Origin: a bacterium
GTDB taxonomy: Bacteria > Patescibacteriota > Minisyncoccia > Phycocordibacterales > Zambryskibacteraceae
Direction of reading: 5' to 3'
DNA length: 64,000 nt
Assembly (NCBI GenBank): GCA_030649135.1
Contig: JAUSGI010000008.1
Location: 81,935-145,934 of the forward strand
This document shows, in pieces, positions 14,478-61,641 of this stretch (the first letter of the stretch is position 1; each line of letters opens with the position of its first letter). A model generated the notes under the pieces. The model saw nothing but the letters and a program-made list of their open reading frames with translations, had not been told where the DNA came from and searched no databases. Position numbers and translations under genes: made by a program.

Positions 14478-14503
14478 CAAACCCCGCCAGAGGCGGGGTT
14501 TGT
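14478..14503 (-). terminator. Rho-independent terminator built on a CCCCGCC-AGA-GGCGGGG palindrome (REP-like family member)
   Basis: 'aaaccccgccagaggcggggttt' is a perfect 7-bp GC stem flanked by A and T runs, so it can terminate in either orientation. It lies 23 nt downstream of the RRM gene stop. Confidence 0.65.
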
Positions 14504-17029: not shown

Positions 17030-18694
<1,665 letters not shown>

Positions 18695-19075
18695 TTATTT
18701 AATGACTGCTAAAATATTGTCTTCTTTCAAGAGATAAAGTTCCTCGCCGCCCTGTTCAACTTCGTCATATCCGTATTTGGAAAAGATGACAACGTCGCCA
18801 ACCTTAAGACGCACCGGTACCAATTTTCCCTCGATCCATTTCCCCTCCCCGACGGCTAAAACTTTACCTTGAGCCGATTTCTCTTTGGTCACGGATTCAG
18901 GGAGAATAAAATTGAGTGGAGACTTTTTACCTTGAGCTTGCCCCGCCACGGCGGGGCGCAGTCGAATCTCTTCTTCGGTAAAAGGACGAACCAGAACTCT
19001 GTCCCCAAAAGGCTTGATCTGGGCTTTTGCTTGCCCGGAGTTTTTGCGAGGGGTTTTTGTATTTTTCTTTTTCAT
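18695..19075 (-). CDS. groS: Co-chaperonin GroES with a Lys-rich N-terminal extension and an internal in-frame insertion
   Basis: 'IKPFGDRVLVRP' and 'GKVLAVGEG' are GroES motifs. The protein is 126 aa against about 95 aa typical. The extra 'EIRLRPAVAGQAQ' segment is encoded by the palindrome at 18940-18957. Confidence 0.85.
   Translation of the reverse strand: MKKKNTKTPRKNSGQAKAQIKPFGDRVLVRPFTEEEIRLRPAVAGQAQGKKSPLNFILPESVTKEKSAQGKVLAVGEGKWIEGKLVPVRLKVGDVVIFSKYGYDEVEQGGEELYLLKEDNILAVIK
18940..18957. repeat. REP-like palindrome CCCCGCC-ACG-GCGGGG, in-frame inside groES
   Basis: 'gccccgccacggcggggc' with flank 'ggcggggcaagctc' on the coding strand. It is identical in core to the copy at 28582-28597 and shares the flank with 61547-61560. 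Confidence 0.7.
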
Positions 19076-24544: not shown

Positions 24545-24621
24545 GTTGTGAGTTGAGGCCGTGTCCTCAACTCGTTTGTACTTAGGCGTGACATCGGCAC
24601 GCATTGGGATCTGAAACTCTG

Positions 24622-24852
24622 CTAGTCCCCGATCGCCCCACTTCGTGAGAACGGGCGAGAGACGCCCGGTAACACCCGGGACGGATCCATCCCGAGGCGC
24701 TGCCTCAGCCACGCGACCCACTCCGGATAGCTCGGAGTGAGAAGCACGACGACCTCGTCGTAGGTCGGCGTGTCCCCAAGCACGTCGCACACGGCTGGCA
24801 AAAGAAGCCGGCGTGTTTCCTTGTCGAGTCTCCGACCCGATGCGTCATTCAT
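24622..24852 (-). CDS. Island gene b: hypothetical protein
   Basis: 76 aa with a strong SD 'GAGGAGAAGG' upstream of the ATG. The gene is GC-rich. Confidence 0.5.
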   Translation of the reverse strand: MNDASGRRLDKETRRLLLPAVCDVLGDTPTYDEVVVLLTPSYPEWVAWLRQRLGMDPSRVLPGVSRPFSRSGAIGD

Positions 24853-25085
24853 TGCCTTCTCCTCATCGCGCTTTGCGCGACTTTAAACATTTAGCAGTGC
24901 GTCCTCTTGCGAGGCCTATACGCACTGCGGTTCAGCCCCCTCTGTGCGGGGAATCGATACTTGATTATATTTTCTTTCTCAAAGAACTAACTGTTTCGCC
25001 CTTTCGGACTCATCAGCGCAGATACACATCTGCGAACAGCGGGAAGTTTTGCTGAGATACTTCCCGAAACTCTGGGTTTGCACGG

Positions 25086-25406
25086 TTACCCCTTCTTCTT
25101 CTTGCTACCGGCACCCATGCCAGCGGCCATCCGGCGCTGCTCCTCCGCGCGCTCGCTCCGGTGGGCGAGGTAGCGCTTGTGCGCCGCCTCACGGATGGAG
25201 GCCGAGAACTCGGTCTCCTTCCGACGCCGCTCGGACAGCATGCGCCTGGCGCACGCCAGGCGTGGCCGCCAGAAATCGGAGGTCGCGAGTTGCTTGTCGA
25301 GCTCGACCGCGGCGATATCCGCCGCAACGGTCGAAGTGGCGACCTGCACCGGCAGGGTGCAGGCCAGAAACTCTATCACTCGGCCAATGGAGCGTGTCGC
25401 ATTCAT
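25086..25406 (-). CDS. Island gene c: hypothetical Ala/Arg-rich protein with a KKKKG tail
   Basis: 106 aa with SD 'AAGGAGAA'. Upstream on the minus strand lies TTGACAA-N17-TATCAT. Two hairpins follow downstream. Confidence 0.5.
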   Translation of the reverse strand: MNATRSIGRVIEFLACTLPVQVATSTVAADIAAVELDKQLATSDFWRPRLACARRMLSERRRKETEFSASIREAAHKRYLAHRSERAEEQRRMAAGMGAGSKKKKG

Positions 25407-25516
25407 GGCGTTCTCCTTATCGTGCCTCCCCTTCGTCTATACTTAGGGTGAGGACTTTCTAGCTACAATGATAGCATAATACAACTTATTTGTCAATGGC
25501 TTTAAATAGTTAAAAG

Positions 25517-25545
25517 TAAAAGGGCCCTCCGTGTAGGCAGGGCCC
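25517..25545 (-). terminator. Hairpin terminator for island gene d (AAAA-GGGCCCTCC-N-AGGGCCC)
   Basis: 'aaaagggccctccgtgtaggcagggccc'. Confidence 0.5.
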
Positions 25546-25564
25546 AGTCGAAACGCCACCTAGT

Positions 25565-25960
25565 CTAGTAACTGGTGGGGAAAGCAGATGTCAGCGCCTC
25601 CCCCTGGTCGCTTGCCGGGTTGGGGTTGAACCAAACCCGAGAGATGGACCCATGGCCGATGTGATACACGCCGGCCAGAGTACATGAGCCATCCCGCTGT
25701 GCGGGGTGATGTACGAACACCCCGAAACGCAGACGGGCCAGCGCGGCCGCGATGCAGAACGGCACATCCGCGACGGCATAGACGAAGCCATCGCCATGCT
25801 CGCGGACGTAGTCCGCGAGCCCATCCGTGGTGACGAACACCGTGGGGTCCTTCACGATCTCCACGTAAACACCGTGGAGAGTTCGCATCGCCCGCCGCTG
25901 TGTGGGCGACATGTCGTAACGCGATAACCAATAAATCCTCCCGATGTAAATTCTGTTCAT
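25565..25960 (-). CDS. Island gene d: hypothetical protein
   Basis: 131 aa starting at the ATG at 25960 ('MNRIYIGRIYW...'), with SD 'GGGGGAA'. Upstream on the minus strand lies TTGACAA-N17-TATTAG. No family recognised. Confidence 0.5.
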   Translation of the reverse strand: MNRIYIGRIYWLSRYDMSPTQRRAMRTLHGVYVEIVKDPTVFVTTDGLADYVREHGDGFVYAVADVPFCIAAALARLRFGVFVHHPAQRDGSCTLAGVYHIGHGSISRVWFNPNPASDQGEALTSAFPTSY

Positions 25961-26068
25961 GGTTCCCCCACTCTGCCTCCCATTTCTCGGAGGGCTATAG
26001 GTAATACAACCTTGGTCTGCTCTCACTAATAGCACAGCACAATTCTCTTGTCAACAGCGTCCATAAAT

Positions 26069-26504: not shown

Positions 26505-28154
26505 TTATTTCTTATTTTTTATTATAGCTTTTATAAAAGCCGTGAAAAGAGGGTGGGGGGAAAGAGGTCGCGCTTTGAACTCCGGATGAAATTGCGTTGA
26601 GAGATAAAATGGGTGAGCATTTTTAGACAATTCAGCTATTTCGCAAAGTCTCCCGTCTGGAGACATGCCGGAGAAAATCATGCCTGCCTTATTAAGTCTT
26701 TCAATATAAGCAGGATTAACTTCAAAACGATGCCTGTGTCTCTCGGAAATTTTATTTGTCGCGTAGGCCTTGTGGGCAAGAGTCTTTGGTTTAAGAACCG
26801 CCGGCCAAGCACCCAGGCGCATGGTGCCGCCAAGTTTACCGTCTTTAATTTTATCTTTCTGCTCTTCCATGACATCTATCACCGGGTATTTGGTTTCTTT
26901 ATCTACTTCCGTAGTGTGTGCACCCTTGAGACCGGCCACATGCCGTGCGTACTCCACTACCGCCAGTTGCATACCGTAACAAAGCCCGAGATACGGAATC
27001 TTCTTTTCCCTCACAAACTTAATTGCGCTGATAATGCCCTCCACGCCGTTGGAACCAAAACCACCCGGCACTATCACTCCATCGTAATTTTTAAGTTCAC
27101 TTACTTTGCGTTTACCCGTCTCGTATTCTTTGGCATTTATCCAGACTAGTTTAGGCTTCACGCTTTGCCAATAGGCAGAGAATTTGACAGCTTCTATAAC
27201 CGACACGTAGGCATCGGAGAGCACAAAGTCTCCGGTGTCGAAATATTTACCTACTACCGCAACCCTCACTTCCCTCTTGGCGGACTTGGTTTTAGAAACA
27301 AATTTTTTCCAGGCGACTAAATCCTTTTTGCGTGGTTTGAGACCGAAGTGGCCGAGAATCCTTTGACTTAACCCGTCCCGTTCAAAATTTATCGGCACAT
27401 CATAAATACTTTCGATATCCGGCGCTGCAATGATATCCTCACTCGACACGCCCGTGGCCAGAGCGATTTTCTCCTTCCGCTTCTGGTCAATCGACACCTC
27501 GCTTCTTGCGATAATCATGTCCGGTTGGATACCGTAGGAATTGAGTTGGCGGATAGCATTTTGGGTAAGTTTGGTTTTCATCTCGCCGAGCTTGCCCGGC
27601 ACAGGAAGATAAGAGACCATCACGAACATAACGTTTCTTGGTTCTCGAATTTTCATTAGGCGGGCTGCTTCGAGAAAAATGGCATTCTGATATTCGCCGA
27701 CCGTACCGCCGATTTCGAGTACGGTAATATCCGCATTAGTTTTAGAAACTGAATGATGAATACGATTGAATATCTCTTCCGTTACGTGATAGACCGGTTC
27801 CACACACTTGCCGTTGTATCCAAGAGCGCGCTCTTTATCTATAACATGTTTAAGAATCATGCCATTGGTCAGATAATTTTCCGAAGGCATATCGGCATTG
27901 AGGAAACGTTCGTAATTGCCCATATCCTGGTCAGTCTCAAGACCGGAATCCAGCACAAAGACTTCTCCATGTTCGACCGGATTCATGGTGCCGGCATCGA
28001 CATTTAAATAAGGGTCAGCCTTGATCAGACTGACCGAGAAACCTTTTGACTGGAGAATGGCGCCAATAGAGGAGGTGGCGATACCTTTGCCGACTCCCGA
28101 CATTACTCCGCCCACGACAAAGATATATTTATACCGACCTTCCTTTTTTCTCAT
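26505..28154 (-). CDS. pyrG: CTP synthase
   Basis: A synthetase domain ('GGVMSGVGKGI') is followed by a GATase domain ('GLCYGMQ'). Confidence 0.95.
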   Translation of the reverse strand: MRKKEGRYKYIFVVGGVMSGVGKGIATSSIGAILQSKGFSVSLIKADPYLNVDAGTMNPVEHGEVFVLDSGLETDQDMGNYERFLNADMPSENYLTNGMILKHVIDKERALGYNGKCVEPVYHVTEEIFNRIHHSVSKTNADITVLEIGGTVGEYQNAIFLEAARLMKIREPRNVMFVMVSYLPVPGKLGEMKTKLTQNAIRQLNSYGIQPDMIIARSEVSIDQKRKEKIALATGVSSEDIIAAPDIESIYDVPINFERDGLSQRILGHFGLKPRKKDLVAWKKFVSKTKSAKREVRVAVVGKYFDTGDFVLSDAYVSVIEAVKFSAYWQSVKPKLVWINAKEYETGKRKVSELKNYDGVIVPGGFGSNGVEGIISAIKFVREKKIPYLGLCYGMQLAVVEYARHVAGLKGAHTTEVDKETKYPVIDVMEEQKDKIKDGKLGGTMRLGAWPAVLKPKTLAHKAYATNKISERHRHRFEVNPAYIERLNKAGMIFSGMSPDGRLCEIAELSKNAHPFYLSTQFHPEFKARPLSPHPLFTAFIKAIIKNKK

Positions 28155-28180: not shown

Positions 28181-28387
28181 CTAAGACATTTTGGGGATAA
28201 TAAAGATGGCCAAAATGTATGCGACAAGTCCCGGTACCACCCCGCTGAATATAACTACGAGGAGCCAAACTAGGCGTAATGGCACTGGGTCAATGCCGAA
28301 GTACTCCCCCAGTCCTCCACAGATACCGGCAAAAACCTTGTTGGTATTACTGCGATATAATTTCTTGGTTTCCATATTGGTTTCCAT
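28181..28387 (-). CDS. PspC-domain membrane protein
   Basis: 'KKLYRSNTNKVFAGICGGLGEYFGIDPVPLRL' matches the PspC domain. The start lies in a tandem 12-nt duplication (METN-METK), and the ORF is open back to 28459. Confidence 0.65.
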   Translation of the reverse strand: METNMETKKLYRSNTNKVFAGICGGLGEYFGIDPVPLRLVWLLVVIFSGVVPGLVAYILAIFIIPKMS

Positions 28388-28426
28388 ATTGGAATTATAA
28401 CAGATTTCAGGTATCGTATGAACTAT

Positions 28427-28663
28427 TGCGGGATCGTCTAATGGTAGCCTGCCCGCCATCGCTGGGAGTTGAGCTGGGAGATCGTCTAATGGTAGGACAC
28501 CTCCCTCTGAAGGAGGTTATCTTGGTTCGAGTCCAAGTCTCCCAGCTCAGGCCCTAGCAGGCGGGGACATCGCCATCCCTGCCCCGCCGTGGCGGGGTGA
28601 AAAGGCGAGCATCTTGCTTGTCCCGGCCAGCCGGGCGGGAGTCGAGTCCAAGTCCCGCAGCCA
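28427..28663 (+). pseudogene. Fragmented tRNA-Gln(UUG)-like gene interrupted by GC-rich palindromic insertions and by an intact tRNA-Gln(CUG)
   Basis: Segments match the intact tRNA-Gln(TTG) at 39279-39352 in collinear order. 28427-28447 matches nt 1-21 (21/21). 'GACATCGCC' at 28567-28575 matches nt 22-30 (9/9). 'GGCGAGCATCTTG' at 28604-28616 matches nt 39-51 (12/13). 28647-28663 matches 'TCCAAGTCCCGCAGCCA' (17/17). They are separated by inserts that include ccccgccgtggcgggg. Confidence 0.55.
28475..28545 (+). tRNA. tRNA-Gln (anticodon CTG)
   Basis: Hand fold. Acceptor is TGGGAGA/TCTCCCA with a U1-A72 pair, as in bacterial tRNA-Gln. D-stem is GTC/GAC. Anticodon stem CCTCC/GGAGG encloses loop CTCTGAA. 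The T-arm is CTTGG-TTCGAGT-CCAAG. No CCA is encoded. Confidence 0.75.
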
Positions 28664-28711
28664 GGTTTGCTATAACTAAGCGCATGAACAAATGTGCTAC
28701 AATAAGAACAT

Positions 28712-29602
28712 ATGAACAAAATAATCATTGCGCTGGCTGTAATCATGATTGCTGGTTTGGGTGTTTACTTTATAAACAAGAGTCCTACAAAGGTAGTAAA
28801 TCCTCCCGAAAGCCAGAATACTACTGCTACCACTACGCCCATAGCGAAAGAAGAAAATCCAAGCGAATCGATTATCGGTAAATCGGTCGAGAATCGCGAC
28901 ATCATCGCCTACCACTACGGCACCGGTGAGACGGAACTATTGTTTATTGGCGGGATACATGGCGGATATTCGTGGAATACGGCACTGGTCGCATTTGAGT
29001 TGATGGACTATCTCAAGGCAAGCCCCAATATCATTCCCAAGAATATAAAAGTGACGGTCATTCCGGTACTGAACCCGGACGGTTTGAATAAAGTTGTCGG
29101 CACTGCTGGTCGCTTTACCCCATCGGATGTGCCGTCGCCAATATCCGCCACGGTGGCTGGTCGCTTTAACGCCAATACCGTTGACCTTAATCGTAACTTC
29201 GACTGTGACTGGAAAGCTTCAGGCACATGGCAAAGCAAAACCGTCAGCGGCGGAAGCAGGGCTTTCTCCGAACCCGAAACCCGGGCAATCAAAAGCTACG
29301 TAGAATTAAACAAACCAGACGCAGTCGTGACCTGGTATAGTGCCGCAGGGGGTGTCTATGCCTCCGAGTGCGGTAAGGGCATTTCCGCCGAAACCCGGGC
29401 TATCACAAAAGAATTTGCCGATACCTCCGGCTATCCTGCTTTTGATGATTTCGACTTCTATGAGGTAACGGGCGACATGGTCAATTGGTTTGCCAAGAAT
29501 AATATCCCAGCCATCAGCGTGCTTCTCACGAACCACACAGACACCGAATGGACAAAAAATCAGAAAGGCATCCAGGCTCTCCTCAAGTATTACGTCAAAT
29601 AA
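28712..29602 (+). CDS. Secreted M14 / AstE-AspA-superfamily zinc-peptidase-like protein (paralog 1)
   Basis: TM anchor, then 'GGIHGGYSWN' and 'VDLNRNFDCDW' (M14-like DxNRNF motif). The canonical HxxE appears altered. Confidence 0.5.
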   Translation: MNKIIIALAVIMIAGLGVYFINKSPTKVVNPPESQNTTATTTPIAKEENPSESIIGKSVENRDIIAYHYGTGETELLFIGGIHGGYSWNTALVAFELMDYLKASPNIIPKNIKVTVIPVLNPDGLNKVVGTAGRFTPSDVPSPISATVAGRFNANTVDLNRNFDCDWKASGTWQSKTVSGGSRAFSEPETRAIKSYVELNKPDAVVTWYSAAGGVYASECGKGISAETRAITKEFADTSGYPAFDDFDFYEVTGDMVNWFAKNNIPAISVLLTNHTDTEWTKNQKGIQALLKYYVK

Positions 29603-39278: not shown

Positions 39279-39352
39279 TGGCTGCGGGACTTGGATTCGA
39301 ACCAAGATACTCGCCTTCAAAGGGCGATGTCCTACCATTAGACGATCCCGCA
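39279..39352 (-). tRNA. tRNA-Gln (anticodon TTG)
   Basis: Hand fold. Acceptor TGCGGGA/TCCCGCA, anticodon loop CTTTGAA, T-arm CTTGG-TTCGAAT-CCAAG, CCA encoded. Confidence 0.8.
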
Positions 39353-40747: not shown

Positions 40748-41727
40748 GAACGTAGTATATCAGATACTATTTTGTTAACCTCGTTTGCGTTGTTCGTTTC
40801 CATAAGTTTGGCGCGTAAATCCCCTGCTTTATCAAAGCCCGTAACGTAGGCCTTAAAATGTTTCTTCATCACAGAAAAGTTTTTGTACCCACCGAGCAGT
40901 TCTTCAAATAACTTTGTGTGCTCAACCAGCACCCGCAGTTTTTCTTCGGTTGCCGGAACATATCCTTCCACAAATAGCCACGGGTTTCCGAAAATGGCCC
41001 GGCCGAGCATGACACCATCACAGCCCGTCTCTTCGACTCTCATCCTTGCTTCTTTCAAATCTTTAACATCCCCATTACCCAAAATTAAAGTGTCTTTACC
41101 ACTTGCATCACGAATCTCGACTGCCAGTTTGACAAACTCCCAACGAGCGGGCACCTTCGACATTTCTTTCCTGGTACGAGCATGAATGGTAACCATCGCC
41201 ACTCCCTCTTTAAGCATTTCTGACAGCCAGCTCTCCAGGTCAGGACGACTGTACCCTATACGAGTTTTGACCGAGACAGGTAGTGTGCTAGCCCCTTCTT
41301 TAGCCGCCCTTACAAGCTCCCGAGCCAGCACCACGTTCTTCATAAGTGATGCGCCGGCACCTTGTTTCTCGATACTTTTGTCCGGACAACCCATATTTAT
41401 ATCGACACCATCAAAGCCAAGCTCCTTTGCGAGCTCGGCGGCTTTTTTCATATGTTCCGGAGAGGAGGTAAAGAATTGCGCCACGATTGGCCGCTCCGCT
41501 TCGCTATATTCCAGATTCTTCAAAAGTTTCTTTTTCCCCTCTTCCGGCGCAAGTGCCAAGCCGTCGGCAGAAGTAAATTCTGTCCACATCACGGCGGGTT
41601 TACCCCGCCCACCTAGGCGGGGCGAGCCGTACTTAGCGATTATTCTGCGAAAAGCGGCATCCGTAACATCCGCCATGGGAGCGAGGACGAAAACAGGTTT
41701 TTCTATTTTCTGCCAGAAATTATCCAT
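40744..41727 (-). CDS. dus: tRNA-dihydrouridine synthase, carrying an in-frame 10-aa palindromic insertion
   Basis: 'FVLAPMADVTDAAFRRII', 'MWTEF' and the TIM-barrel Dus family. The inserted 'SPRLGGRGKP' lies between the conserved 'AKYG' and 'AVMWTEF' and is encoded by the palindrome at 41603-41622. Confidence 0.8.
   Translation of the reverse strand: MDNFWQKIEKPVFVLAPMADVTDAAFRRIIAKYGSPRLGGRGKPAVMWTEFTSADGLALAPEEGKKKLLKNLEYSEAERPIVAQFFTSSPEHMKKAAELAKELGFDGVDINMGCPDKSIEKQGAGASLMKNVVLARELVRAAKEGASTLPVSVKTRIGYSRPDLESWLSEMLKEGVAMVTIHARTRKEMSKVPARWEFVKLAVEIRDASGKDTLILGNGDVKDLKEARMRVEETGCDGVMLGRAIFGNPWLFVEGYVPATEEKLRVLVEHTKLFEELLGGYKNFSVMKKHFKAYVTGFDKAGDLRAKLMETNNANEVNKIVSDILRS
41603..41622. repeat. 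REP-like palindrome CCCCGCC-CACCTA-GGCGGGG, in-frame inside dus
   Basis: 'ccccgcccacctaggcgggg', with an adjacent ggcggg-ttta-ccccgcc half overlapping at 41594-41609. Confidence 0.7.
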
Positions 41728-61186: not shown

Positions 61187-61273
61187 TGGTGCGCCGGGCA
61201 GGATTCGAACCTGCGTAGACCAAAGGTCGAGGGATTTACAGTCCCTTGCGATTGACCGCTCCGCCACCGACGC
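61187..61273 (-). tRNA. tRNA-Tyr (anticodon GTA)
   Basis: Hand fold. Acceptor GCGTCGG/CCGGCGC with one G-U pair, anticodon loop CTGTAAA, long variable arm, T-arm CAGGTTCGAATCCTG, CCA encoded. Confidence 0.75.
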
Positions 61274-61281
61274 AATAACCA

Positions 61282-61521
61282 TCAATTTATCAGTTTTTTC
61301 AAACCATTGCCACCTTTGTAAGATTTGATCTTCTTTTCTCTCTCAAAAGCTTCTTGTTGTCCCTCGAACAATTCCAAATGGACTATTTCCCACGGACAGC
61401 CAAGTTTTGTAGATAAATTTTGACCTTTATTATGTTCCTTCAGCCTCCTTTTATAATTATTTGAGCACCCTATATAATATTTTCTATTCTTTTTGCTCTG
61501 AAGAATATATACATGCCACAT
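61282..61521 (-). CDS. GIY-YIG nuclease-superfamily small protein (YhbQ/UPF0213-like)
   Basis: 'WHVYILQS...KYYIGCSNN...RRLKEHN' matches the GIY-YIG core. Confidence 0.7.
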   Translation of the reverse strand: MWHVYILQSKKNRKYYIGCSNNYKRRLKEHNKGQNLSTKLGCPWEIVHLELFEGQQEAFEREKKIKSYKGGNGLKKLIN

Positions 61522-61538
61522 GTCCGTGCGATTGATTC

Positions 61539-61588
61539 CGCCCCGCCTCGGCGGGGCAAGCTCCGCCTTTACCCCGCTGTGGCGGGGA
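61539..61588. repeat. Two tandem REP-like palindromes (CCGCCCCGCC-TC-GGCGGGGC and ACCCCGC-TGT-GGCGGGGA) between the GIY-YIG gene and clpB
   Basis: The first copy carries the 'ggcggggcaagct' flank, identical to the groES-internal copy. On the minus strand the pair would act as a terminator for clpB. Confidence 0.65.
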
Positions 61589-61641
61589 CCGACACGATGG
61601 GGCTATTCTAATCGAAATCTGACGGACTTGCAAAAATACTT

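Follow-up and report, generated by a model that had tools for sequence, protein, structure and literature searches.

We analyzed a 64,000-nt stretch of contig JAUSGI010000008.1 (GenBank assembly GCA_030649135.1), hereafter the window, in which 237 nt at 28427-28663 hold four collinear outer pieces of a tRNA-Gln gene around three insertions of 118, 29, and 24 nt. The first insertion carries a complete tRNA-Gln(CUG) gene between the two arms of a GC-rich palindrome. The reading that we favor, and consider probable, is that a cargo-bearing member of a family of 39-nt palindromic elements, provided with a tRNA-Gln(CUG) of foreign type, was inserted into the D-loop of the resident tRNA-Gln(CUG) gene, which it inactivated and replaced. 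The nested tRNA is best understood as the cargo of this first palindromic insertion, not as an accidental neighbor, and as the replacement of the gene that was broken. The whole work is a comparative sequence analysis, in which the window was compared with contigs and stretches of relatives and metagenomes, denoted by L and a number (L081 is Logan SRR13727527 and L002 is a GTDB contig); taxonomy was established for few of the metagenome contigs. The locus is made up of the following parts.

28402-28426, plus strand: probable promoter or leader of the resident gene for tRNA-Gln, with agatttcaggtatcgta similar to the cgattttcaggtattgta found immediately 5' of tRNA-Gln(CUG) in L001 and L087
28427-28447, plus strand: outer piece 1, acceptor 5' strand, D-stem 5' strand, and D-loop (positions 1-21), a 21/21 match to L082, L088, and the window's tRNA-Gln(UUG) gene
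28448-28565, plus strand: first insertion, 118 nt, in the D-loop, consisting of left arm, inner tRNA, and right arm
28448-28474, plus strand: left arm of the cargo-bearing element, CCTGCCCGCCATCGCTGGGAGTTGAGC, also present in L004 and in the nested loci L090, L108, L154, L157, and L168
28475-28545, plus strand: inner tRNA-Gln(CUG), intact, called by ARAGORN and scored at 63.4 bits by the Rfam tRNA model
28546-28565, plus strand: right arm of the element, CTCAGGCCCTAGCAGGCGGG, complementary to the left arm, with which it prolongs the inner acceptor helix
28566-28574, plus strand: outer piece 2, D-stem 3' strand, position 26, and anticodon-stem 5' strand, GACATCGCC, a 9/9 match to the L082 tRNA
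28575-28603, plus strand: second insertion, 29 nt, the hairpin ATCCCTGCCCCGCCGTGGCGGGGTGAAAA in place of the 7-nt anticodon loop, with a motif also found in L109
28604-28616, plus strand: outer piece 3, anticodon-stem 3' strand, variable region, and start of the T-stem, GGCGAGCATCTTG, a 12/13 match to L082 (GTAT changed to GCAT)
28617-28640, plus strand: third insertion, 24 nt, the GC hairpin CTTGTCCCGGCCAGCCGGGCGGGA in the T arm, read directly from the sequence
28641-28663, plus strand: outer piece 4, rest of the T arm, acceptor 3' strand, discriminator G, and CCA, GTCGAGTCCAAGTCCCGCAGCCA, with one T-loop T lost

The four outer pieces, here called the shell, were identified by alignment and synteny. 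With the inner tRNA removed, the shell aligned to the intact tRNA-Gln(CUG) of L082 with a score of 113.7, which none of 2000 shuffles reached (23.9 +/- 4.8, maximum 42.9); its score against the window's own tRNA-Gln(UUG) gene was 105.8. In L082, whose PyrG is 89% identical to that of the window, the order pyrG-pspC-tRNA ... M14 is kept, and the place of the nested locus is occupied by an uninterrupted tRNA-Gln(CUG), TGCGGGATCGTCTAATGGTAGGACATCGCCCTCTGAAGGCGAGTATCTTGGTTCGAGTCCAAGTCCCGCAGCCA, that shares the acceptor stem, the anticodon stem, and the T-loop G of the shell. An uninterrupted tRNA of the L082 type also adjoins pyrG in L088. Within the T-loop segment TCGAGTCC the shell reads G, as do the CUG-type genes of L082 and L088, and at this position the UUG gene of the window reads A. 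Over the ~66 positions that are retained, the shell departs from the L082 gene by one substitution (GTAT to GCAT) and one lost T. The shell is thus the resident tRNA-Gln(CUG) gene of the locus, orthologous to the L082 gene. The uninterrupted genes of L082 and L088 would represent empty target sites, although in species different from the window organism.

A preliminary description of this DNA had presented the outer pieces as fragments of the intact tRNA-Gln(UUG) gene of the window. Collinear tRNA-Gln pieces around an intact tRNA-Gln(CUG) are indeed all present: nucleotides 1-21 match at 21/21 positions, the third piece at 12/13, and the final 17 nt of piece 4 are identical to the UUG gene, one T-loop T being absent; the second piece exists as described, except that it spans 28566-28574 and not 28567-28575. 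The UUG gene was rejected as the source of the shell: the CUG ortholog fits better in synteny, in the T-loop G, and in alignment score, and the match to the UUG gene was noticed because that gene is a near-identical paralog. It is the following feature.

39279-39352, minus strand: tRNA-Gln(UUG), intact paralog, called by ARAGORN and scored at 65 bits by Rfam, like the shell in acceptor stem and body type

No relics or elements were found beside this gene, which, although not the source of the shell, could donate sequence to it by gene conversion. The trinucleotide CTG at 28579-28581 was also considered as a surviving shell anticodon and rejected, as it belongs to the hairpin element ATCCCTGCCCCGC..., which occurs in L109 as well. 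In L109 the motif of this second insertion, ATCCCTGCCCCGC..GCGGGGTAAA, fills the D-loop of a broken outer tRNA-Gln, and its 16-nt core, CCCCGCCGTGGCGGGG, recurs inside groES of the window at 18941. Within the nested locus, ARAGORN and Infernal with Rfam called only the inner tRNA, and neither ARAGORN nor Rfam called the shell, in which the RF00005 cloverleaf is neither present nor restorable because the anticodon loop has been replaced by a 29-nt element and one T-loop base has been lost; the flanking shell pieces are significant by alignment.

An independent assembly, L081, is identical to the window from 28518 onward and confirms the 3' half of the locus. As the shell alignment exceeds all 2000 shuffles and an independent assembly matches it, the nested arrangement is real and lies far beyond chance. 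An assembly chimera formed at k-mers shared by two Gln tRNA genes is exceedingly improbable. Repeats of 16-22 nt are common to tRNA copies, and both L081 and L002 break inside or at such a tRNA, as a chimera would lead one to expect. At the junctions of the window, however, tRNA sequence meets unique GC-rich arms and not a second tRNA with a common k-mer, 28518-28663 and the sequence beyond are found again in the independent assembly L081, the same architecture occurs at 11 other distinct metagenome loci from different samples, and the tRNA relic of L190 is broken at the same D-loop position.

The window belongs to what appears from its proteins to be a Zambryskibacteria-like Patescibacteria (candidate phyla radiation, CPR) genome with no very close sequenced relative; apart from the PyrG of the source genome itself, the nearest PyrG proteins are 89% identical (Zambryskibacteria, Parcubacteria, and Patescibacteria proteins from metagenome-assembled genomes, MAGs). 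The nest was not found in closer relatives, L084 and L086 being free of the arrangement and the contigs of L083 and L089 too short to judge, and the exact PspC open reading frame (ORF) of 92 amino acids had no record. L002 is more distant by PyrG than L082 and L088, yet carries a tRNA of the inner type. The locus is flanked by the CTP synthase gene pyrG (26505-28154, minus strand) and by a PspC-domain protein on the minus strand whose true start lies near 28387, and it is followed on the 3' side by two M14 peptidases from 28712 on the plus strand.

The inner tRNA, which the preliminary description had placed correctly at 28475-28545, is a sound gene. Its score of 63.4 bits against RF00005 compares with a gathering score of 29, none of its 21 stem pairs is mispaired, the acceptor stem is UGGGAGA/UCUCCCA, the anticodon lies at 28507-28509, and no CCA is encoded. 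The insertion that contains it sits directly before GA and holds no ORF. In the minimum free energy (MFE) fold of the locus (-120.5 kcal/mol, z = -4.6) the arms and both acceptor stems are paired, as are the leader and trailer of the inner tRNA (TGAGC/GCTCA), and the outer 7-bp acceptor helix is intact.

The arms of the first insertion belong, by their sequence, to a family of GC-rich palindromic elements with the 39-nt consensus CCTGCCCGCCATCGCTACGCTCAGGCGTTAGCaGGCGGG, with which the first 16 nt of the left arm agree exactly. The family was retrieved by scanning JGI metagenomes with the right-arm pattern CTCAGGCNNTAGCNGGCGGGG, which yielded 100 stretches; since the right arm was fixed by this pattern, diversity is underestimated and arm covariation in the cargo-bearing copies cannot be judged. 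About one quarter of the 100 stretches are chance matches in GC-rich contigs that have no left arm. A total of 45 records represent 38 distinct copies of the basic, cargo-free element in low-GC contigs, with 38 distinct flanking contexts, a length of exactly 39 nt in 32 copies, and a mean column identity of 96%. Their hairpin is conserved: 97.9% of cells are paired, the inner stem shows compensatory changes (ACG/CGT to ATG/CAT, GCG/CGC, and TCG/CGA), and the count of such changes was reached by 3 of 500 shuffles. In approximately 14 of the 38 cases the element is situated within an ORF (170-1090 amino acids) and is read through in frame; it amounts to 13 codons and has three open frames. In GlmS, for example, it encodes the peptide ASPPSLRSGVSGRG, an extra loop of ~12 residues compared with the Escherichia coli protein (PDB 1xff). 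Around five of the basic copies lie in tRNA relics, and in L004, whose PyrG is 68% identical to that of the window, the arms of the window recur inside another broken tRNA-Gln. The family spans classes of Patescibacteria, L112 being Berkelbacteria-like by its RNase Y and L004 and the window grouping with Paceibacteria-type relatives. No target-site duplication was evident at the 38 copies, where an enrichment of GA at the 3' flank (15 of 38, and all tRNA cases) was the sole signal. Neither the element nor the inserts matched an Rfam family, and the sequence of the element was not found in any paper of the library searched. Carriage by phages was considered on account of three IMG/VR matches and rejected, as these were chance matches in GC-rich contigs lacking the left arm.

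Two further arrangements of the 39-nt element were observed. In L093, L116, L128, L152, L156, and L158 it stands at the tip of a conserved long inverted repeat, between gagtgaaatttttcac and ctgggaaaaatttcac; in these six contigs the repeat (for example L093 6230-6440, with no Rfam match) looks like a structured RNA or another repeat. Elements within elements are found in L097, L114, L160, L163, L109, and L103, with a second CCTGCCCG... hairpin inside the left arm or at the tip, and L103 also has tandem 41-nt variants of the element. This nesting suggests that hairpin loops are themselves insertion targets.

At 11 further distinct loci the tip of the element's hairpin carries a whole tRNA, and the unit lies within a second tRNA gene of the same amino acid specificity; the nested tRNA is bounded by ...CCATCGCTGGG..TTGA.C and CTCAGGCCCTAGC.GGCGGG.

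L090, L108, L109, L154, and L168: Gln(UUG) in Gln(UUG), inserted in the anticodon loop after TTTG
L157: Gln(CUG) in Gln(CUG), inserted in the T-loop (GGTTC / GAATCC)
L099: Gln(CUG), between the outer D-loop and the outer T-loop
L112: Pro(CGG) in Pro(CGG), inserted in the anticodon loop
L173, L179, and L186: Gly(CCC) in Gly, with the element in the opposite orientation

The insertion sites in these nests are the D-loop, the anticodon loop, or the T-loop, always with GA directly 3', and the T-loop is also a recurrent insertion point in other relics (L154, L168, L157, L177, and L185). The inner tRNAs are uniformly intact. Nine inner Gln tRNAs have the acceptor stem UGGGAGA/UCUCCCA (one as a compensated variant), with 0/21 stem pairs mispaired in each. 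The outer acceptor stems vary among nests. Removal of the element in silico gave an outer tRNA that ARAGORN could call at 7 loci. Most outer genes, however, are decaying: the five outer tRNAs that could be reconstructed have 0, 4, 0, 1, and 3 mispairs, the mispairs being in L108, L157, and L168. Other outer tRNAs have suffered deletions (L099, L109), second insertions (L154, L168), or loss of the 5' half (L100/L135/L153, L182). A tRNA nested in a tRNA is a recurrent architecture, of which the locus in the window is a further member with a D-loop insertion and a badly damaged shell. In the paper library searched, we found no paper on a tRNA gene nested inside another or on palindromic elements in Patescibacteria.

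All 12 cargo-bearing nests and four partial ones lie in tRNA genes for the same amino acid, against only about five of the 38 basic copies in tRNA relics, which argues against random insertion followed by selection. The inner tRNAs of the Pro and Gly nests are only 71-74% identical to the outer ones and therefore appear to have been imported and not duplicated locally. A local origin of the nests by duplication or repair, with the GC arms as ordinary processing stems and nothing mobile involved, is an explanation to which we give a low probability. It would account for the inner core of L090 and L157, which is 98% identical to their own outer tRNA, for the 87% identity between the inner tRNA of the window and the shell type, and for the confinement of cargo-bearing copies to same-amino-acid tRNA genes. 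It does not account for the same arms and inner acceptor stem at about nine loci with different outer acceptor stems and at least three insertion sites, nor for the arms being the ends of a 39-nt element in 38 unrelated contexts that include protein-coding genes. The divergence of the Pro and Gly inner tRNAs also speaks against it, as does the distribution of types, the PyrG-closer L082 and L088 being uninterrupted and the more distant L002 carrying the inner type.

The preliminary description had offered two explanations of its own. That of a pseudogenized tRNA serving as a sink for palindromes comes close to the evidence, with the differences that, judged by L082 and L088, the pseudogene is the resident CUG gene and not a copy of the UUG gene, and that the nested tRNA would be the cargo of the first insertion and the replacement of the broken gene. 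The other, a multi-intron or permuted tRNA, found no support in the window, where the anticodon loop of the shell is gone, a T-loop base is lost, and no intron signature was found. In a fuller form, the outer gene would be a functional multi-intron or split tRNA whose three inserts are removed from the RNA and whose halves are joined or held together. The insertions do lie in three loops, the four outer stems remain complementary, excision in silico restores perfect outer tRNAs at some other loci, and GC-rich arms joining two tRNA halves recall the split tRNAs of Nanoarchaeum. Yet the anticodon loop has been replaced by a hairpin element that elsewhere occupies a D-loop, and a 7-nt loop cannot be recovered by excision at any boundary. 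The T-loop lacks one base, the inserts match no intron or ribozyme family at E<=10, and proteins contain the 39-nt element translated in frame, so that splicing is unnecessary. Outer tRNAs at other loci are mispaired or deleted whereas inner ones are all perfect, and a second tRNA of the same specificity is always present. With its anticodon loop destroyed, the outer gene of the window is one for which this explanation is largely refuted, and overall we regard it as highly improbable.

Two known kinds of interrupted tRNA gene bear on the same question. Archaea have tRNA introns at non-canonical positions, and in the split tRNAs of Nanoarchaeum GC-rich complementary arms bring the halves together. 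The loci described here resemble these in their short GC-rich insertions in D-, anticodon-, and T-loops and in their complementary GC arms; they differ in that the host is bacterial (U1-A72 tRNA-Gln, Patescibacteria-type RNase Y and PyrG), the outer tRNAs are degenerating, and copies of the element form part of translated proteins. Inspection of the junctions showed no bulge-helix-bulge, the intron-proximal CCTG... not pairing with the GACA that begins the 3' exon, as a 4-bp helix between 3-nt bulges would require. Patescibacteria also have self-splicing group I introns of ~257 nt on average, at position 35/36 of the anticodon loop of tRNA-Asn and tRNA-Asp (PMC13011429). Those introns and the window share the phylum and an interruption of a tRNA gene that standard tRNA finders miss, whereas in the window the gene would be replaced and not spliced, and the inserts measure 118, 29, and 24 nt. 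No group I intron (Rfam Intron_gpI) was found in the window at the gathering score, or in 28300-28800 at E<=10. The small size of the inserts (24-118 nt, against that ~257-nt average) likewise counts against removal by splicing.

In the reading that we favor, replacement by a cargo-bearing element, the arms would form a long hairpin stem with the intact foreign-type tRNA-Gln(CUG) on its tip. The composite would be transcribed from the promoter of the old gene; the region at 28402-28426 is probably the promoter or leader of the resident gene and would now drive the whole composite. In the transcript the arms would zip into a stem of ~20 bp, presenting the inner tRNA and insulating it from the two outer halves with which it shares homology. 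The inner tRNA would then be freed by RNase P, a 3' nuclease, and the CCA-adding enzyme, and would now do the decoding. The CCA would be added enzymatically because the inner gene ends in GCTC, whereas the old gene encodes GCCA. The outer halves would be a dispensable relic that is discarded, and two more GC hairpins would later have been inserted into this relic, destroying the anticodon loop and damaging the T-loop. The cargo copies found are all in tRNA genes of matching amino acid specificity, which suggests that they are copied into tRNA alleles under the guidance of homology and not transposed at random, and this spread was possibly started by small GIY-YIG nucleases found at the same loci in relatives.

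Several points weigh against this reading. The promoter, the processing, and the use of the inner tRNA are all inferred from sequence, no transposase or nuclease linked to the element was found in the window, and the 5' junction at 28447/28448 rests on one assembly and on analogy with the other loci. The surviving shell is almost unchanged, with one substitution and one lost T compared with the intact gene of the relatives; such conservation is compatible with a recent event, with gene conversion by the UUG paralog, and also with continued selection. At other loci, the outer tRNAs of L090, L112, and L154 keep perfect stems, L154 despite two insertions. The outer acceptor stems of L154 and L168 are distinguished by two compensatory pairs even though these loci have their two insertions at the same sites. 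The inner cores of L090 and L157 match their own outer tRNAs at 98% identity, so a simple import model fails for these two loci unless gene conversion is added. Gene conversion among copies and paralogs could account for all these misfits, namely the little-changed shell, L154, the L154/L168 pair, and L090/L157.

The conservation of the shell would also be expected if it were retained by selection as a structured leader and trailer, a tRNA-like clamp that helps the inner tRNA or the downstream M14 peptidase mRNA to fold, to be processed, or to remain stable. We think this improbable. In its favor, the shell has accumulated only those two changes in ~66 positions while the flanking intergenic DNA diverged from L082, the 7-bp outer acceptor helix is intact, the fold lies far below shuffles (z = -4.6), and some outer tRNAs keep perfect stems despite two insertions (L154). 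Inner tRNAs, moreover, are always accompanied by leader/trailer pairing, in L190 too, with unrelated sequence. On the other side, the outer 5' half or middle has been lost while the inner tRNA was kept in L099, L100, L109, and L182, which makes the shell dispensable there, mispairs accumulate in L108, L157, and L168, and the conservation may reflect a recent origin or gene conversion by the UUG gene at 39279-39352, which is nearly identical.

The locus varies among relatives of the window organism. In the window, no GIY-YIG ORF lies between pspC and the M14 gene, but the equivalent locus carries one in L082 and L004 (both by Pfam), L088, and L085, and remnants of one in L190-L193. L190 and L191-L193 have identical PyrG proteins and different alleles at the adjacent tRNA-Gln locus. 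The order in L190 is a 5' relic, a GC hairpin, a GIY-YIG pseudogene, a tRNA of the inner type with its own leader/trailer stem, and a 3' relic, the 5' relic being broken at the same D-loop point as in the window. In L191-L193 the remnant of a GIY-YIG gene is accompanied by a tRNA of a third type. L194 and L195 have a different PyrG protein, a promoter region nearly identical to that of L190, and an uninterrupted gene. As different tRNA-Gln alleles stand beside identical PyrG, the locus appears to be a hot spot of replacement.

A comparable layout is found within the window at tRNA-Tyr.

61187-61273, minus strand: tRNA-Tyr, intact
61282-61521, minus strand: small GIY-YIG ORF of 79 amino acids (Pfam 3.8e-16)

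Upstream of this GIY-YIG ORF, on the minus strand and within 61187-61600, lies a 5' tRNA-Tyr fragment (GTCGGT / GGCGGAGC / GGAATCAATCGCA) that is split by the hairpins CCCCGCCACAGCGGGG and CCCCGCCGAGGCGGGG, a match reached by 4 of 2000 shuffles. The same succession of a 5' tRNA fragment split by a GC hairpin, a GIY-YIG ORF, and an intact tRNA is seen for tRNA-Gln in L004, L019, and L088. Among 11 small GIY-YIG ORFs (~80 amino acids) in 1.24 Mb, a sample biased to tRNA-Gln neighborhoods, nine lie at most 200 nt from a tRNA and several at 0-9 nt. Free-standing GIY-YIG homing endonucleases are known from tRNA regions, for instance SegB of phage T4 (PMC2330249). Here, too, small GIY-YIG genes directly adjoin tRNA genes, and the pyrG-adjacent tRNA-Gln locus of relatives carries them together with tRNA relics. 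The differences are that the Gln locus of the window has no GIY-YIG gene and that the predicted ORFs comprise the catalytic domain alone in ~80 amino acids.

These associations leave room for a bolder extension of the favored reading, in which the loci would be natural selfish elements of the 'cleave-and-rescue' style: an enzyme breaks the resident tRNA gene, and a palindromic cassette with a recoded replacement tRNA is copied in. The cut would be made by a GIY-YIG nuclease or another enzyme, the tRNA halves would act as universal homology arms, the different acceptor stem of the replacement tRNA would possibly make it resistant to cleavage, and tRNA genes would be serially overwritten across Patescibacteria. 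We regard this extension as speculative and on balance unlikely. It is permitted, and not required, by the facts that cargo occurs only in same-amino-acid tRNA genes and that inner acceptor stems are conserved while outer ones vary; it is likewise permitted by GIY-YIG genes or remnants sharing the loci and by genomes with identical PyrG carrying different tRNA-Gln alleles.

Among known mobile repeats, the Rickettsia palindromic elements (RPE), attributed to Ogata and colleagues in 2000, are reportedly in-frame palindromic repeats of roughly 100-150 nt in protein and RNA genes. The 39-nt element is like them a short GC-biased palindrome of a reduced genome that lies in frame in protein genes, also occurs in RNA genes, and is tolerated as a surface loop; it shares with them both its many unrelated contexts with conserved sequence and its in-frame insertion in protein genes. 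It differs in being unrelated in sequence, much shorter, and spread across several classes of Patescibacteria, and in that some copies bear a whole tRNA at the end of the hairpin, within a tRNA gene of matching amino acid specificity. We know of no RPE that carries a complete tRNA within a tRNA gene. Integrative elements that target tRNA genes are kilobases in size and have an integrase gene of their own, and the only portion of the tRNA that they duplicate, at attL/attR, is the 3' part. The insert of the window resembles these in its tRNA gene target, in keeping tRNA function, and in leaving a redundant tRNA fragment behind, and it differs in measuring 118 nt, in having a complete foreign-type tRNA as its sole gene, and in being nested in a loop between both halves of the old gene; it contains no ORF, and the old halves flank it with no duplication. 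The REP elements mobilized by RAYT transposases are described as extragenic, with a conserved 5' GTAG or CGTC tag (PMC3733652). The 39-nt element differs from them, as its consensus starts with CCTGCCC and many copies lie inside genes.

The reading in which a cargo-bearing element replaced the resident tRNA gene touches on several fields. What would be new here is a miniature palindromic mobile element whose cargo replaces the gene that it disrupts, of which no published description was found. tRNA genes are among the most conserved genes and are usually single-copy in reduced genomes; in this lineage they appear to have been repeatedly overwritten by very small mobile hairpins that come with a substitute tRNA. 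If so, relics and nested genes would mislead tRNA finders and could break assemblies, and acceptor-stem types would spread horizontally in the evolution of Patescibacteria tRNAs. Mobile-element biology would gain a miniature element whose cargo compensates for its own damage, protein evolution an RPE-like family of 13-codon inserts in Patescibacteria proteins, and enzymology a testable role for abundant small GIY-YIG genes adjacent to tRNAs.

Two independent assemblies, L002 (1-140) and L081 (1-30), break at or inside a Gln tRNA, which indicates that nested repeats fragment short-read assemblies; nested tRNA repeats may for their part be under-represented in MAGs. Elsewhere in the window (47% GC), a block at 24600-26050 has a GC content of 59% and contains only overlapping Arg/Pro/Ala-rich ORFs and an ORF of 156 amino acids (25565-26035, minus strand) that had no Pfam match; the block may be foreign DNA, a structured RNA, or an intron.

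GC-rich hairpins also lie in frame inside essential genes of the window, in groES (18941-18960), at the 3' end of groEL (17038-17069), and in dus (41589-41632). The GroES of the window has 106 residues aligned to 92 positions of the Cpn10 profile, and the groEL hairpin is a short relative of the 39-nt element, with which it shares CCCGCCATCGCT and GGCGGGCAGG. Stems of the form CCCCGCC-loop-GGCGGGG between A and T runs, found at 14482-14498 of the window and in L009, L044, and L066, look like ordinary bidirectional terminators. The hairpin inserts and the terminators of the genome share stem sequence.

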